DNA of 64,000 bases, taken from NCBI GenBank assembly GCA_951406725.2, contig OX597821.1:59768001-59832000 (forward strand). Reading direction: 5' to 3'. The notes under the pieces were generated by a model. That model was not told the DNA's origin. It did no database searches and saw only the letters and a list, made by a program, of their open reading frames with translations. The position numbers were made by a program, and so were the translations under genes. The DNA comes from Octopus vulgaris. Its lineage: Eukaryota. Positions 25,827 to 39,348 of this stretch are shown in pieces; the first letter of the stretch is position 1; the number at the start of each line of letters is the position of its first letter.

Positions 25827-27120
25827 TGTCCCCTTTTCTATACCTGCATAGGTTAGATAGAATTTGTTTTGATATATGGAAGTTTCAAATTGAAGAAAAT
25901 ATCTCAATAAAACAGTCTGACTTATGCATAAAAAGTGGATGTTAAAATGACAAAAGCATCTTAGCATCCAGCTGCTAATTTGAAAATTAAAAAAAAAATC
26001 AAGAATTACATATTAGTTTACATTAAATGAGAAAAATCAAACCCAACAAATTTTAGCACATATTTATTACGGAATTCCAACAATTTGAGAGATAAGAAAA
26101 ACCAGTTTTCTTTCTCAAAAGTCCAGAGACAGTCAGACACAGACAGACAGACAAAACAAGTGTAGTTTACTTGCCACATTAACTTACAACAATAATTGCT
26201 ATAAGTAAATATTACAAATTTTAATGTTTTTCATTAATTGAACATATTTTGCTGAATTGGAATAACAAGAAAACACCTCAAATATCAATTAAGAACAATT
26301 ATTTTGTTTTCCACTATAACGCAATGAAAGAAATGAAATGATCAAATAGATAAGTTACCGAACTTGTCTCGATGTGATTTCAAATTTCATGCAATTTTAT
26401 ATGAAATGTGTGTGTTGTTTTTTTTTTTAGGTAGTGGTGGCTGAATACTCAGATGCATTCTCATTTGCTTCAGTTTAACCAAGTTGCTGTGGGTTAGGGT
26501 ACTTAGATTTCAAAGGAAAAGTCAATACAGTTGACCCTCCATGATACCCAAGTGCAGTTAAGAAATGTTAGACATTGGATAAATAATTTTATAGCACAAT
26601 AGTCACAGCTGGCCAGAGAGGGGGGAGCTTATTGGTTAAAATATCACTAATTCATGCTGATTATATCCAAGAAAAAAAAAAAAAAAATCAACTCGTATTT
26701 ACACAAACTTCAAGATGAGTGAAGGTGTCAGTGGCTATGCAGATAACAATGTTTTTTTTTTAGTTCAAATATGTTAATATTTACACAATTTATGTACATC
26801 AGTTCCTTACACTTCATAAATTAATAAAAGGAAATGATTCTGAAAAGAAATTCATAATACTTTGTAACAAAATTACATGTTGAAGGATTTACAAATTACT
26901 TGAATGTGATGCAAGGCTAGCTGGTTTTTTAAAATTTATTAGAAAATTTCTTTACATGATGGCTACTTTATGTGTAACAGTTTCTAAATATCCTAAACAG
27001 TAATATCAAGATAATTTCACAATATTACAGAAAATCCTGGCAAATATCAAAAAGTTAAATTTTATCAAAAATAATTTTAATTTTAGAAATATTGAATTTC
27101 TAAATGTCTCAAAGAGACAT

Positions 27121-27392
27121 GAGCAGTGGTGGAGCGATAGAGTGGTTGTATACTGTCAACATAACGTGACAGCCCCGTAAAGGGAATTACACCACCGCTT
27201 TATAGCCCTAGGAAGCATCGACGCTTCCTGTCGGCTTTGACACATTTTCTGTGTCCTTATATTTGCGAAGGGGAGGTAAGCACCCCCACCAGCTAGGACT
27301 AGCAACCTGAAGACATGCATGTTTCTGGGTCTTGCCCGTCATCAGTTCAGGGTAGCAAGTCCTGCTAGTTGAGATACCTGCCAAGCCTTCAC
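27121..27392 (-). mobile_element. Retrozyme-like, hammerhead-containing non-coding element (about 270 bp)
   Basis: GC/CpG-richer island in AT-rich DNA containing the hammerhead and several hairpins; homologous to 11452-11700. Confidence 0.6.
27306..27351 (-). ncRNA. Type I hammerhead ribozyme motif
   Basis: Minus strand reads CCUGAA-CUGAUGA-c GGG caaga CCC a-GAAA-CAUGCAUG-UC-UUCAGG: 6-bp stem I (imperfectly extendable to about 20 bp), intact core, palindromic stem III, UC cleavage site. Confidence 0.8.
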
Positions 27393-28616
27393 AATTTTAA
27401 TTTTGTGGAGTTGAAATTTCTTATTTAACATCCCTGAAAATTATTCACTCTTAAACTAAAATAAAGTAAGCATTTAAAACGGGAAAATATTTGCATCGTT
27501 TATAACTAATAATACTCTGAGAAGTTTCATTTTATAATAATATGGGCACATTTACTGAAATTAAAAGTTGAGCAAGACTTAATGACTCTTGTTATATTCT
27601 TTTCAAGAAAAACAAATCTGGAAATGTGAAATCAGACTAAATTACTCACAAGTTAAATTTATAGATAGCTTAAAAGTTTCCAAGATAATCAAGTGGATTT
27701 GTTATAAAATTGTTTCCATTTCTTGAGCGATTGAATTTCATCTTCCAATAATTTACAGATATTCCAACAAAAATTCATTAATCTAATTTAACTTTGAAAA
27801 TTAAATTGCAACTAAAATCTCATCCCATTTGAAAGGCTTCAATTGTCCAAGTTGTGGCAACAATTTGCTTTTAGATATAAATTTCATGAACTAAATAAAC
27901 ATGAAAATTTACTAGAAAAGCTCTAATTGATTTCATTGATAAATAGCTTTTACTAAAAAAATTATTTACATTAAAAATATATATATAAAGATGAATGATA
28001 ATGGTGTGAAAAGTTTGAATTTAAAAAAATTATGGTTCTATTCATTTGTTTGATGAAAACTTTGTAAAGATACTAGAAAAATATCCAAGAAATATTCAGA
28101 GAAAAACCACATTTGTTCTGAAAATAAATAATGTGATTCCAGAATTATAAGAATAAAAAGCCATACCTCTTCAACATTGATTCATATCACAAAATAATTA
28201 AATTCCAGCCAACCCACAGAAAGGGAGGTTCTACTGACTGTTATATTCTTTTGCCACCTGACATAGATTTAGTTAAGTTAAAAAATATATGAAGCTCTAA
28301 TAGTTAAATAGATGGTGAGTCTCCATCAAACATGTATTTAACTAAATATAAGATCATACATTGATAGTAAAATTTTCATTTCTAACCGACAACATGATAA
28401 AATGAAAGAAACAAAAATTTTTTACAATTCAATGAAGAACATAATTGAATTTCCAAATAGATGATTCTTTTGATTCTTTGCTAACGCAATACTAACATTC
28501 CACACAGCACTTATGTAATAATGACGCAGTAATACTTTTTCCAATAAGTCGTTTTATATCTTTCAGCAAACACTCAAACACACACAAAAATGAATATTTT
28601 AGTGAATCTGTAACAT

Positions 28617-28754: not shown

Positions 28755-30204
28755 CTGCAACATAAGAAATAACTTATTAACTACAATTTAGAATTAGCTG
28801 CATTAAAAACTACTTTATATATATATAGCACTTACATAGCATTACATTCCAACTTGGGTCTTCTGGATACCAATACCTCTCATATATCATCAGCATCGTT
28901 TAACATCCGCTTTCCATGCTAGCATGGGTTGTCCTCAGTCAAATCGTCCAAAGCGGACGTTAAACAATGATGATATGAGAGGTATTTGTATCCAGAAGAC
29001 CCAAGTTGGAAGGTAATGCTATGTAAGTGCTATGGAAGGACCATAGTTAAGCTATCAGTTCGATTATGATACGAGTGAGGAGTAATGTGGATCTTGTATG
29101 AGCATGTTAAATATATTGAGACAACAAAGCAAAAGCTGTGTGGAATTTTCAAGACATTTGTAAAGAGAAAGTCTTACAGCTGTTTCTGGGATATCCCTTC
29201 ATCAGAGACAATGTGAGATGGTTAAATAGAGAGAAATATTTGAGTTCAATATAAGGAGTTATTTTGGAAAAGGAAGGAAATAAGGAGTATATAGGGAAAT
29301 AGGAGAATGGATGTAGAAAAAAAAGAAAAAATTAAAATATATAAAGATGTTATAGTTGCAGTTCTATTATCCAAGGAAAGTGGTGTGTAGAAGTGGTAGA
29401 AATGCTTCTTGTCTGTGGGATGTAAATTCCAATAGGAGTTCATATTTTGTCGTTACAAATGGAAAGTGTAGAGATGAAAATTCCATGTACTGTTCATTCA
29501 AAGGGGTCTTGTGGTGTGAATGAAAATTTGAGAATGTAGTGGTAGTATTTAGTGGATAGAGAGGGGAGAATCATCATCATCATCGTTTAACATCCGCTTT
29601 CCATGCTAACATGGGTTGGACGTATGACTGAGGGCTGGCAAACTAGTTGGCTACACCAGGCTTCAATCTTGATCTGGCAAAGTTTCTACAGCTGGGTGCC
29701 CTTCCTAACGCCAACCACTCCGAGAGTGTAGTAGGTGATTTTACGTGCCACTGGCACGGAGGCCAGAGAGCCGCTCTGGCAATGATCATGTTAAAATGAA
29801 GAGAGAGGTCAAAAGGAAATGGTGAGAAAAGAAGGAAAGAAAGACGAAGAGAAAATGAAAACTAGAAAATAAGACAAAATATTAAAGGAGTGTTTGTTGG
29901 TGATCAAGATAATATGAGGGGGAGACGAGAGAAGAGTAGGGGAGGGGTAGGAAGAGATAACAATGTAAGTAATGAATATAATGAGGTGGGGGTGATGATA
30001 TGTTAGAATGGTATTAAGGGATGGGTACAGAAAAAGGTATAGGGGTGGTTCTAAACCACAAAACAGAAGGGAAGAATACTAAGAATGGTCAAGTTTCTAT
30101 ACATAGACTTATGTCTATTGTACTGGCTAATGTGATAGTGTGGGTAGAGGAATCAGAAAGAAAGAAGTGTACATTGATATACGCACACATGCACAAACAT
30201 GTTC

Positions 30205-30242
<38 letters not shown>

Positions 30243-33200
30243 ACTATTACATAGTTGTTTGAATTGAAACTGAGCTTATGGTATGAAGGCAAAGTTATTC
30301 TGACATACCTATTATCTGTTATTTGTTTTAGCCATAGGACTGGCCATTCTAGAGCACTGCTTTGAAGGACCAAGATAACCCCCCCCCCAGTACTTATTCT
30401 ATCAGTCTTTCTTGCTAAGCTACTAAGTTACAGGATAGAAACAAACCAACACGAATTGAGGACCAAGTGAGAGAGACAAACACAGACATGCAAACATGTA
30501 AGTGACGGGCTTCTGCATTGTTTCCACCTACCAAATTCCTTCACAAAGTTTTGGTCAGTTTGGGGCTATGGAAGACATTCAACCAAGGTGTCATGCAGTG
30601 GGACTGAACCTGAAACCATGTGGTCAAGATGCAAATTTCTTAACCACACAGCCACAAAATTTAACAAACTTGAAATTTAAAAAAAAAAAAGGGTAACTTA
30701 CAAGTAAACATAAGAATCTATTATGAAGTGAAATACAAAATTAAATTTTAAACATTTTAACTCTGGCATTTAGCAACGTATCTACCAAAATCTGGTATGA
30801 TTCCATTTCTTCTTGAAACACTTAACCTCCTAAGCTTTTGTCTTTAATCACAGTAATTTCTGATTTAGGGTACATGGCCAGCATTTTTTGAAAGAACGGG
30901 TACTTGATGATAGTGTAGATTATTGACTCTGAAAGAATGAGCCGACCTCAATGAGATTTGAACTCAGAACAAAGAACCAGAAGAAATACTTCAATGGACT
31001 TTTCTATGTGATGCTCTAACATTTCTGCCAACCCATTGCCCATAAAAAGAAACATAGAAACAATTACCATGCATTTCTCGAAGAAAGCTTTGTAACCACC
31101 ATCAAGAATATAAATTTCGGGGTAATACAGATAAGGATAACAGCTCTCATTTGCATTTCGGTCTCTGCTTCTTAGGAATTTTGCTCTGAAATTTTAGAAG
31201 TGAAAAATATTAGAAACTTTAGGAAAAAGGCTGATTTACAAATACAACACATGGTATTGCAATTTAATCCTTTAACATAAACCTGACAGGTCCAGCCTAA
31301 ATATTCTACCATGTTTTATGTTCAAACCATTTGGATCTGGCCTCTTACTCCTATCCTACAATATCCTAAAAATAAATAATCTCACCATTGAATTCTCAAA
31401 GCTATAATGTAAATAAATTAGCATTACATTTGACAGAGTAACCTGAATACTAAAGAATTAATCCTCAACCATTCTCATAACATTCATGAAACTCAAACCT
31501 CGGTAAAGCTTCCACCATCATGTATTTTTTTTTTCTTTTTCATCATCCCTACTTTTCCCAGTAGAGAACATACTCAAGCTGTGTCATTTGCTAGGATCAG
31601 ATGCCTTCATATTTTTTCCGTTCACTGTTTTAATGTTGATGAGTACAAGCAGTACATCTATATGAAAAATGCACTGCCTTACAGCAGTCAAAAAACAGCA
31701 AGCAATAGTCAGTGCATTTGGGGTAGCTGAGCACACTGGGTGGTGGCTGGGGTGTGTTTTTGTAGCACAAAGAGAATCTTTGATCGTTAACCTTGTTATC
31801 ACAGATCAATCCATGCTAAGTGTAATATGGTTTGCAATTAAGCATACCATGTTATCCTAGGTCAATGATAAACAAAGCCACATATATTCAAATATAAACA
31901 TAACACAACATGGTTCTGAATTACATGTTAGCATAAAACTAGAAGCATCCTGAAGCAGGTTGATATGGAAAGCATAAATATTGAAATTCCGAATTATTAA
32001 CACAAATTAAAACCAACTATCTATAGCAGCTATTGAACAGCTCATCATCATCATCACTTTTCTAATATCTGAAAAATAAAGCTGTCTCTTAGCAAGACAA
32101 ATTAAATACTCATGGCACCCAATATCAGAAGAGTGAAAGACTCAGGCAGAATATAAACCCAAACCAGAAAAATTACATTAACCCTTTACCATTCAAATTA
32201 CTCTGACAAATGTACGGATTATTTGTTTAGTTTTGAATTAATCATACATTATCTCAGCTTTAAAATTTCAATGATGTGATTATTTTTACAGTAACAGAAT
32301 AGTAGGCATGAAAGGCTGGCACTAGCTGGTTTGAACATATAAGGTAAGGATAAAGACCCCCTTCGATCATGAACAATCATGGGATTGCACCTACAAAGTT
32401 CCCATCTGAGGCACAAGTCTGGGCATGGTTGTTTTGTAGAAGACCAGCAGTCGCCCTTCCCCACATCACTGATGTTATCTAAGGGAAAGGCAAAGGCTGA
32501 TACAGCTTGGCACCAGTGATGTTACAATTCATTTCTACAGCTGAGTGAACTGGAGTAACATGAAATAAAGAGTCTTGCTTAAAAGAACACAATGCACAGG
32601 CCGATCTGGGAATGGAACTCACAACCTCATGATTATAAGCCCAGCCATGCACCTTCAATGAACATGTAATTGTTAGAATATTTGGGCCAGATATGGCTGC
32701 TTTAAAAGCTAGAGGACTAACACATTCAGTGCTAACATACTGCTCCAGTCATCTCAACATTCTACAAAATTTAAACAAAGAAAAAAACCAGTCCTACAAA
32801 ATTTAAAATAAAAGCACAATTACTTACAACTTTGGTGCTCTTTCAGAAGAAAATTCGCAATGGAATACAACAATATCTCTTTTTGCAGAATCACTCATTT
32901 TTGGAGGATTTTCTAAAAATTTCTTATAAATGCTGTTTTCATCATAAAGATTTTCTGCTTTCTGAAACAAAGATTTCAATATTGAAATATTTCACATGAA
33001 ACATACTCAAATCTCACTAATATTTAAATATTTCACAATGAAACATACTCAAATTTAGTCGGAAGGGAAAGAAACAATGTGCATCCTCTTCCGATTCCAT
33101 AATCAAATTAGAAGATAAGCAGATCAGAAGTTTGGAAGAAGAAAATGGTAGGTTATATTGACCCAAGTGTGTAGCTGAGTGGTAAGAAATTTGCTTCCCA

Positions 33201-36200: not shown

Positions 36201-39200
36201 AGGACCAAAGACTTGAAGTGTTTCATGTTGCAAGACAGTGTGCGAGAGAGAATCGTGATGTAGGAGAGAAATGTGTCCACATGGATGATGGCTCGCTTGC
36301 ATTTAATGAGGCTGCAAAGCAAGCAACTTGGAGATGCCACTATGAAAGGTTGCTAAATGAAGAAAATCTGCCAAATGTCGACTCAACAGAGGAACCAGCT
36401 ATCTGAATTGACAGATAAAGCAGTTCAGGGTATGAAGACAGGGAAAGCTCTCGGCCCATCAAAAATCACCGCAAAGATGCTTAAAATACTTAGCAGTGTC
36501 ATCTAGAGCCTAGTCACTCGTATAGTCAATCAGGTGATACATGAAGGAGTTGTAGTGATGCTACTGTGCAGGGTTTGGCGCACATGCGCAGAATGGGACT
36601 ACTTCCGTGTGGCCACCGGAAGTCTTCCCCATGCGCATGTGCGGGAAAACGTCCCTCGAGCCCGCGAACCTCAAATCTCTCTCTTCGGCTGAGACAGCAT
36701 TGCGATCGGTCACGAATTCTCGGCTCTGACCGCCACACGACCAGCAACCAACTTCAACGACCAACACGAAGCAGTATATCAGAGGCTGTCTTTCCCCCCA
36801 CCAGACAACGTACTACACTGAATTGGCCCAAGAAACTTTCAAAAACAATCTACATTTAACTTTCTTTAAAATGTTTTTCGTTGTATGATATCATGTACCA
36901 AGTCTTCTGGGGGATCGGCAAGCCTTCTGTTTTCTGCAGCACCACCACAATATTCTTGTTGCCGTACTTCGCACTCGGAGGGGAGCCCTGTAGTGATGCT
37001 ACTGTGTAGGGTTCAGCGCGCATGCGCAGAATGGGGCTACTGTGTAGGGTTCAGCGCGCATGCGCAGAATGGGACTACTTCCGGGTGGCCACCGGAAGTC
37101 TTCCCCATGCGCATGTGCGGGAAAACGTCCCTCGAGCCCGCGAACCTCAAATCTCTCTCTTCGGCTAAGACAGCATTGCGATCGGTCACGAATTCTCGGC
37201 TCTGACCGCCACACGACCAGCAACCAACTTCAACGACCAACACGAAGCAGTATATCAGAGGCTGTCTTTCCCCCACCAGACAACGTACTACACTGAAATC
37301 AATAAACCAAACTACTGTCTGTTCACCCTTTTAACCTGTGTTCGTCTGTATTGTTTTCTGGAAGAATTTTATATGTGACTAGAAAGGATCTCGACACCCT
37401 TCCAGTGCTTCGATAATAGATCCTTTCACGTTACTGAGTCATACGCAATAACTGGTGTAGCAAGACCATAGTCAACTGCTACAAAGGTAAAGGTGATGCA
37501 TTAAATACAAATAATTACAAAGGTATCAAGTTGTTGGATCAGGTAACGAAAGTCATGGAGAGGGTCATAGCCCAACTAATTATGGAAAGACTTTAGACGA
37601 AATGCAGTTTGGGTTCGTGCCAAGGAAAAGCACCACTGCTGCTACATTTCTGGTAAGACAACTGCAGAAGAAATACCTAGCTAAAGATAAACCTTTGTAC
37701 CTGGCTTTCAGTTATGAAATTACCTGACTAAATCCAGAAGCCATTTAATCCAGGATACCAAATATAAAGTTTTAAGATATATAAAATGGACATTTATATA
37801 TATGTGAAATATATTTTACAAGAGTTAATCACTGCAATTCTTGCTTTAATTTTTCACCACCATCATTTTAATTTCCATTTTCCCATGGAGTGGACAGAGC
37901 GGATGGTTACCACCCGTTGCTAAGTGTCACCTGTTCCCAAGTAATGTAATATTTCCTCATAATCAGGCATGTTTTCACAAAAGGGTGGAAACAAAGGGAC
38001 ATCATTTGTATGACAATGATACATGTTTACAACTATAACATGAAGTCAAGGCGAAGGGACAGTCACACACACCCGCACAAAAACATACGTGTATATATGT
38101 ATATCATGTGACCGACCAGGCTATCAGATGTTGCTACACACCGCCAGTTACAATGCGCTTCGCATTGTTTGTCATCAATTGACGCCAACCTGCTGGCTAA
38201 GCGAGCAGGCCAACAGAAGAAAGAGTGAGAGAAAGTTGTGGCGAAAGAGTACAACAGGGATCACCCACCCCCCTGCTGGAACCTCATGGAGCTTTAGGTG
38301 TTCTCGCTCAATAAACACTCACAATGCCTGGTCTGGGAATCGAAACCGCGATCCTACGATCAAGAGTCCACTGCCCTAACCACTGGGCCATTGCATCTCC
38401 ATGTATGTATGTAAGTATATAGAAATAAAGAAGTCAGATCCTGTACACTATAGATCTCTATTGCAAGCAGACCTGGACACAATGCAGCAGTAGATCATGG
38501 ACTGGCAACTCAAGCTGGCTGTGGATAAATGTACCACCATGCATTTTGGGAGGGGAAACCCAGCGTCCACCTACTCCCTCCACAACACTAATCTCAAAAT
38601 GTCTTCGTGTGAACGTGACCTGGGTGTTATTGTCGACAGTGATTTGCGTTGGACAAAACACATCGCTAAAATTGTCAAGAAGGCTGAGGGTGTCTTGGCA
38701 TCACTCACCAAATCCTTTGTGAGTCGCTCTCCGACTATATATCTGCGGCTTTATATAGCTATGGTAAGACCTCACCTGGAATTTGCATCACCAGTCTGTA
38801 ACCCCTATCTTGCCCAGGATATCAATCGTCTGGAAGCCGTTCAGCGACGTGCAACCAAAAGAATACCCTCCATCAGGCATTTGCCATATTCTGAATGCCT
38901 TACTTCCCTGGGCATGGACACATTGAAACTCCGACGTCTGGCAGCTGACTTGGCAGACACCCATAAAATTATCAACCATCTTACAAACAATAACTCTGAG
39001 CACCTTTTCAAACTCCACCCGTCTAACACCCGTGGACATATTTACAAAGTCAGAAAACAGCACAGCTCCCATGACTTTAGGAAACATTTTTTCACGCTGA
39101 GAGTTGCTGAAGCATGGAACAAACTGCCGGCATCAGTTGTTAGATGTCGGAGCACTGCATCCTTCAAAACTTCCATGCTTTCTGAGATTCGCCAACACTA

Positions 39201-39348
39201 CACCTGATTTTCTCCCCTCCATACACATACAAGCATGTATCTGACTCATACATTGTTCGCTTTCCAGACATTTGTACATTACTGCATATATTTTATACGC
39301 ACTTTCTGACAAGTTGTGGTGCACCTGAGCACTGTATACAATAATTTC

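Follow-up and report, generated by a model that had tools for sequence, protein, structure and literature searches.

The 3′ UTR of the octopus cdc25 gene carries a type I hammerhead ribozyme motif on the minus strand, in sense to cdc25, in the 64,000-nt stretch of the Octopus vulgaris genome analysed here (contig OX597821.1, positions 59,768,001 to 59,832,000; hereafter the window). The motif is real, and it is the tip of a multicopy non-LTR retrozyme that arrived as one of hundreds of copies; the retrozyme copy sits in sense inside the ~2.5-kb UTR. Our preferred reading, to which we assign a probability of roughly 0.6, is that this is a tolerated retrozyme insertion that cuts a fraction of cdc25 messages and is probably not selected regulation. 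To our knowledge, few host mRNAs contain a natural hammerhead that cuts. The locus bears on the role of animal genomic hammerheads in host genes, and it offers a clean test case in that the gene acts in the cell cycle, the cut base is known, sibling copies in the hundreds can serve as controls, and public runs already hint at cleavage.

Anatomy and folding of the hammerhead

The hammerhead occupies 27351-27306 (minus strand), as established by direct reading of the sequence, folding and covariation, and its predicted cut falls between 27312 and 27311. Stem I consists of six Watson-Crick pairs (CCUGAA, 27351-27346, with UUCAGG, 27311-27306), CUGAUGA lies at 27345-27339, GAAA at 27325-27322 and the cleavage triplet GUC at 27314-27312, which bears out the description in an earlier note on this DNA of a CUGAUGA/GAAA core, a perfect 6-bp stem I and a UC cleavage triplet. 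The core positions C3-U4-G5-A6-N-G8-A9, G12-A13-A14, A15.1-U16.1 and H17 are all present, and three helices surround the core with helix I open, as in type I. The GGG/CCC stem II recognized earlier does enclose the loop CAAGA with three G-C pairs, but its base is a C.A mismatch that had gone unmentioned; similarly, the palindrome ascribed to stem III is there, but it is 10 nt long and leaves a stem of only 3 bp with a 4-nt loop. The C.A base is family-wide (C in 46 of 48 copies, A in all 48), such that the highly conserved G10.1-C11.1 pair is absent from the window copy and its family alike; we do not take this pair as defining type I, active exceptions having been published. The Rfam check proposed earlier returned no model matching the motif: nothing in the whole window matched at gathering scores, and no hammerhead family appeared at E<=10 in 27000-27500, a model match being treated here as convenient rather than defining for the hammerhead class. 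The loose core pattern alone, taken without its stems, matches 13 places in the window. Like the canonical metazoan type I motifs described in the cited passages of PMC4209133 and PMC3088659, the octopus motif has a helix I of 6 bp, a helix II of four positions, a short helix III, a palindromic loop and a predicted dimer; unlike them, it lacks the G10.1-C11.1 pair and a match to an Rfam hammerhead model.

In the predicted fold, an internal loop directly follows the 6-bp helix I, and stem I is extended by an imperfect 40-bp rod (27394-27263, minus strand; predicted, with covariation in its inner part) in place of the ~20 bp claimed previously. The rod would keep both cleavage products together. 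Two-dimensional prediction, which ignores tertiary contacts, gives the active monomer fold of the window copy a penalty of 4.4 kcal/mol in five sequence contexts and a share of ~0.001 in all five; the competing fold joins the GUC cleavage triplet to the GAC at the base of stem II. Over 49 copies the penalty ranges from 3.7 to 11.5 kcal/mol, and the window copy, at 3.8 kcal/mol in this comparison, belongs to the lowest group. Two strands are predicted to cofold via the 10-nt palindrome, forming a 10-bp intermolecular stem III with one complete hammerhead left, in keeping with the earlier suggestion that the palindromic stem III favors dimers and with the palindromic dimer folding described for metazoan type I motifs (PMC4209133; PMC3088659, in part).

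Across 71 distinct copies, 95.8, 94.4 and 99.1% of helix cells are paired in helices I, II and III, respectively, as compared with 26-44% of cells in slid controls, and stem I shows double changes with pairing kept at three of its six pairs. Double-change cells number 57 vs 23.5 in shuffles, a count that none of 500 shuffles reaches; double-change pairs number 7 vs 7.5, a value reached by 378 of the 500, so by this measure the shuffles are not beaten. The copies are related, however, and helix III is nearly invariant and partly fixed by copy selection. The ribozyme is probably under selection at the level of the family.

The retrozyme family and its relatives

The window copy is a 5′-truncated retrozyme of 312 nt (27394-27083, minus strand) corresponding to monomer positions 43-352 of a natural 352-nt unit, with a GC content of ~0.48 vs 0.10-0.30 in its flanks. 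A 12-bp target-site duplication brackets it on the same strand, the upstream copy at 27404-27393 containing ATTAAA (27401-27396) and the downstream copy at 27084-27073 containing a second ATTAAA (27081-27076). When 27100-27400 was compared with its own genome, 39 other loci at 90-95% identity were found among the 40 scored of 3000 candidates, and exact genome matches number 126 for a 34-nt core and 518 for a 26-nt 3′ motif, with 0 for the reversed control in each case. Because the core has 126 exact matches vs 0 for its reversed control, and because stem I is kept through double changes, the core lies beyond chance. Summed DNA depth in run X15, which is not a copy number, suggests thousands of copies. 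Tandem hammerheads occur in 3 of 60 fetched loci at spacings of 355, 353 and 349 nt, and these tandem units are predicted to fold as circles (z -6.0 to -6.9, 40 shuffles each); Tandem Repeats Finder reports nothing at the cdc25 locus because the window copy is a lone partial unit. The unit is non-coding, with only two short stop-to-stop frames of 60 and 62 aa, has no LTRs and has a GC content under 50%. It thus displays the features of non-LTR retrozymes, namely a type I hammerhead in a multicopy unit of 150-450 nt, tandem copies and a target duplication of >4 bp. The motif had been likened to the Clec2 hammerheads as a host element, but it is instead the cargo of a multicopy retrozyme, as the 126 and 518 matches, the tandems and the 12-bp duplication attest.

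Copy anatomy points to the route of insertion. One common 3′ point ends 18 of the first 20 loci, often against TA runs, while 5′ ends are variable and partial tandem and inverted pieces occur among the copies. Flanking repeats of 10-14 nt that are not microsatellites were recognized, by eye and with no null, at 8 of 53 other loci, many others lying within TA runs. Since copies continue uninterrupted through the cleavage site and are longer than a single unit, we infer a circular or multimeric template. Penelope-type insertion structure, as described in part of 10.1101/2021.04.23.441226, matches this anatomy. There is also a second preferred 3′ end at monomer positions 297-303, usually against TA/TC microsatellites, which suggests that microhomology allows priming from two or more points of the template. 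Full monomers (e.g. L047, L054 and L057) have a TATA-like run ~30 nt before an initiator-like motif (positions 34-70), motifs that we take to be a possible internal promoter; the window copy, starting at monomer position 43, has no TATA-like run.

A candidate helper is present in the genome as a young Penelope-like family (L081-L090) with many intact 781-aa frames encoding reverse transcriptase (RT) and GIY-YIG domains; in its copies these are accompanied by a Cys-rich linker and, upstream, by a frame of 479 aa. A pattern search found no hammerhead common to the L081-L090 copies, and 34 GIY-YIG loci of Penelope-like elements (PLEs) resemble the monomer at the DNA level in AT runs alone. Judging from the insertion pattern and the presence of PLEs, the retrozyme is probably mobilised by a Penelope-like element: the family would make ~352-nt circles by cleavage and ligation, and these would act as templates for target-primed reverse transcription where AT-rich DNA is nicked.

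Non-LTR retrozymes are known as 350-390 bp repeats in Mytilus galloprovincialis and as Rtz_353 in axolotl (Cervera and de la Pena 2020, PMC7229834, in part). As presented there, they resemble the octopus family in carrying a type I hammerhead in a highly paired non-coding unit of ~350 nt with a GC content under 50%, in their tandem copies and duplications of >4 bp, and in the presence of Penelope-like elements in the same genome; the hammerhead HHR_Amex2 also has a mismatch at the helix II base. In contrast to these retrozymes, the octopus family consists mostly of scattered monomers, partial tandems and 5′ pieces in inverted orientation, and not of long arrays, its mismatch is C.A, the window copy lies in a host mRNA, and the circles and cleavage are here predicted only. 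The retrozymes of Xenopus, viewed as non-autonomous Penelope-like derivatives (Li, Clavereau and Pollet 2026, 10.64898/2026.07.22.740005, in part), share with the octopus family the solo monomers spread over chromosomes, the co-occurrence with PLEs, and the few exonic copies, mostly in 3′ UTRs, but no sequence link was found between the octopus monomer and a PLE pseudo-LTR; the word octopus is absent from the main text of that paper, and its cited passages report no test of host-mRNA cleavage. The rodent Clec2 hammerheads in 3′ UTRs are built discontinuously, are conserved among mammals and lower the output of a reporter by 80% (Martick et al. 2008, in PMC2950038, in part). Like them, the octopus motif lies in sense in a 3′ UTR and would in principle be able to remove the tail; unlike these discontinuous, single-locus elements conserved across distant species, it is continuous, belongs to a mobile family with hundreds of copies, and is common to three very close organisms. 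The main text of PMC13282606 contains neither 'ribozyme' nor 'retrozyme', and in literature listings outside subscription journals and supplements we found no cephalopod retrozyme and no title on host-mRNA cleavage by a retrozyme.

The cdc25 transcript and signs of cleavage

Two upstream exons match human CDC25A/B/C chains in a PDB sequence search (E 1e-8 to 5e-9, both exons tried); Pfam searches with three single cdc25 exons matched none of the three. The coding part of the last exon (28755-28617, minus strand, with the stop TAG at 28619-28617) is spliced to an exon ending near 31068, and the 3′ UTR extends from 28616 to 26050 on the same strand, ~2.57 kb to the tail in run X14 and 2.41 kb to the end of the X6 contig. 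The distal poly(A) site (26068-26050, minus strand) comprises AATAAA at 26068-26063 and an X14 end with oligo-T and adapter at 26050, 13 nt past the hexamer. The predicted cut lies 1305 nt past the cdc25 stop, in agreement with the 1.3 kb given earlier. Of the polyadenylation signals in the earlier note, the AATAAA regarded as the first does exist at 26940-26935 but is read through, the tail being seen at 26050, and the ATTAAA at 27401-27396, proposed as an alternative signal, is correctly placed but forms part of the target-site duplication, with no end or tail there in any run. The coupling of polyadenylation to cdc25 turnover that was drawn from these signals is unsupported, the window copy giving no sign of selection; regulation of cdc25, like an influence on Cdc25 or on the cell cycle, is hypothetical. 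Elsewhere in the gene region, a 237-aa stop-to-stop frame resembling the end of a LINE ORF2 (38494-39207, plus strand) lies between the mapped and unmapped cdc25 exons, and two similar GC-rich repeat copies occupy 36507-37330, with a 38-nt tandem at 36998-37079.

The unique UTR stretch is present in 20 of 24 listed public runs under three organism labels, and X6, X8, X14 and X15 were examined in detail. In X6, X8 and X14 (three of three) the previous exon is attached as a loose end at 28755, so these runs contain spliced RNA; this status is a guess from the spliced ends, no listed run being on record as RNA. The earlier note had asked whether cdc25 transcripts read through the element or always end before 27392: one X6 contig runs from the spliced coding region across the cut site to 27218, and further X6 contigs extend to 26206. 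In X14, depth is 23-24 upstream vs 171-237 downstream of the cut, a ~7-fold difference, whereas under a smooth 3′-bias decay, fitted to both downstream contigs, upstream depths of 109 and 45 would be expected; X6 needs no step, as a depth of 69.5 is seen where 56 is predicted. The bin 27314-27414 has only the low upstream depth in both runs, which places the start of the excess at or after the predicted cut. An X8 contig (depth 3.3) ends at 27312 plus one unmatched letter, with no cover downstream, the reverse of X14. As the 30 nt preceding the cut are common to 52 genomic copies, an assembly fork is possible at this end; those copies observed to carry a different letter past the cut, however, also diverge inside that 30-nt stretch. 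The absent cover downstream in X8 and at 27314-27324 in X14 is not counted as evidence by itself. As read from assembled contigs, which cannot show ends or levels, the observations on self-cleavage 3′ of H17 comprise a single contig that ends on the base, a depth step in one run and a read-through in another, and partial, variable cleavage of cdc25 messages, in the cell or during handling, is likely. A broken allele at 27325 in organism B was considered and rejected, the loose X14 letters belonging to G000:C1 near 276382, an unrelated locus that makes this contig end a chimera, and the contig variants listed include no editing in the rod, although contigs drop rare variants.

The insertion is present in all three organisms (A, B and C), with junction-crossing contigs in X6, X14 and X15, and no empty-site joint was found in any of the four runs. 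Only 7 listed substitutions in ~1360 nt of UTR separate the three organisms, which are therefore too close to show constraint. The window copy departs from the commonest letters of the family at 1 of 46 hammerhead positions and at 10 of 312 overall; among siblings (loci L002-L040 only, pieces over 230 nt), 21 of 45 have at most one hammerhead difference and 38 of 45 an intact core. The single hammerhead change converts a G.U pair to A-U, a difference as compatible with selection as with chance, and by sequence comparison the window copy bears no sign of special constraint relative to its siblings. If UTRs are assumed to make up 1.5-2% of the genome, 4-5 sense 3′ UTR insertions are expected by chance from at least 518 copies.

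Under our preferred reading of a tolerated, partially cutting insertion, the lone hammerhead would be mostly misfolded and would cut better as a palindrome dimer, with partial cleavage as the predicted outcome. The cut would leave a capped, tail-less coding fragment, which would decay, and a 1.26-kb polyadenylated 5′-OH fragment, which would linger; exonuclease preference would underlie the different fates of such fragments. A 40-bp hairpin can itself block reverse transcription, and it is conceivable, if unlikely, that the cdc25 message is not cut at all, with the X14 step and the X8 contig end arising from hairpin-stalled reverse transcription and repeat-induced assembly breaks. The very low predicted share of the active fold, the C.A at the stem II base and the X6 contig spanning the site all agree with such a silent passenger, and the X14 contig end at 27325, a chimera, attests that artefacts occur at the locus. 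However, the X8 contig stops on the exact base and its next letter departs from the genome, X14 depth stays level across 3 kb upstream before a step confined to about 200 nt, two-dimensional folding takes no account of tertiary contacts, and the monomer of an axolotl retrozyme hammerhead with U.U in the corresponding position reaches 22% cleavage in one hour (PMC7229834, in part). If the insertion proves to be a passenger, it would show how much a 3′ UTR tolerates. The chance that the downstream excess is instead a separate transcript, initiated within the element or shortly past it and terminated at the poly(A) site of cdc25, appears remote: downstream depth does exceed upstream depth in X14 and X6 and full monomers have the TATA-like run and initiator-like motif, but the window copy is without that run, and the low bin at 27314-27414 means that the excess begins at or after the cut.

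Selection could also have kept the insertion because cleavage limits cdc25 mRNA, perhaps with trans-activation by abundant retrozyme RNA via stem III. The sense orientation in the UTR, the presence in all three organisms, the rarity of exonic retrozymes in Xenopus (0.24-0.32% of copies; 10.64898/2026.07.22.740005, in part), the X14 step with the exact X8 end, the 10-bp intermolecular stem III and a monomer penalty among the smallest of 49 copies are consistent with such exaptation. It is nevertheless distinctly unlikely in light of the closeness of the three organisms, the intact core in most siblings, the number of sense insertions expected by chance under the assumed UTR fraction, and the absence of any sign of ATTAAA use. 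We consider highly doubtful the further proposal of a cdc25 switch in which a self-blocked hammerhead would be activated in trans by circular RNAs of the family through the palindromic stem III; were it true, retrozyme expression would determine how much of a mitotic-entry mRNA is present and would free a stable polyadenylated UTR fragment of 1.26 kb.

A LINE-like element within the retrozyme family

In members of the retrozyme family, the hammerhead is also closely preceded by a LINE-like element of 1.65 kb that has ORF1 only (L059:2861-4497; L126, L127, L131, L139; L095-L124). It has a zinc-knuckle frame with an E of 0.0009, just under the Pfam cut-off, no RT frame was found in the copies read, and we take it to be a non-autonomous element of L1/Tx1 type. 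Among 30 loci with its 3′ end, the sequence that follows is the retrozyme at positions 62-87 in 17, the core of a related hammerhead in 4, only a short piece in 4 and neither of these in 5. Retrozyme arms overlapping by 11-23 nt on both sides, as would a target duplication, are present at 4 of 18 loci read further (11 of the 18 with a full-length copy) and at two others. The element, which inserts at one site in the 5′ arm of the rod in several retrozyme subfamilies, is likely a site-specific parasite of the retrozyme, and its read-through RNA could be ended by the hammerhead. Literature listings showed no case of a LINE-like element targeting retrozymes, and this parasite is possibly more novel than the cdc25 hammerhead itself. 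Directly after the LINE-like 3′ end at L108, L115, L118 and L120 lies a second hammerhead family. It shares the C.A at the base of stem II, but its stems and palindrome differ from those of the first family, and BLAST does not match it to the first monomer.
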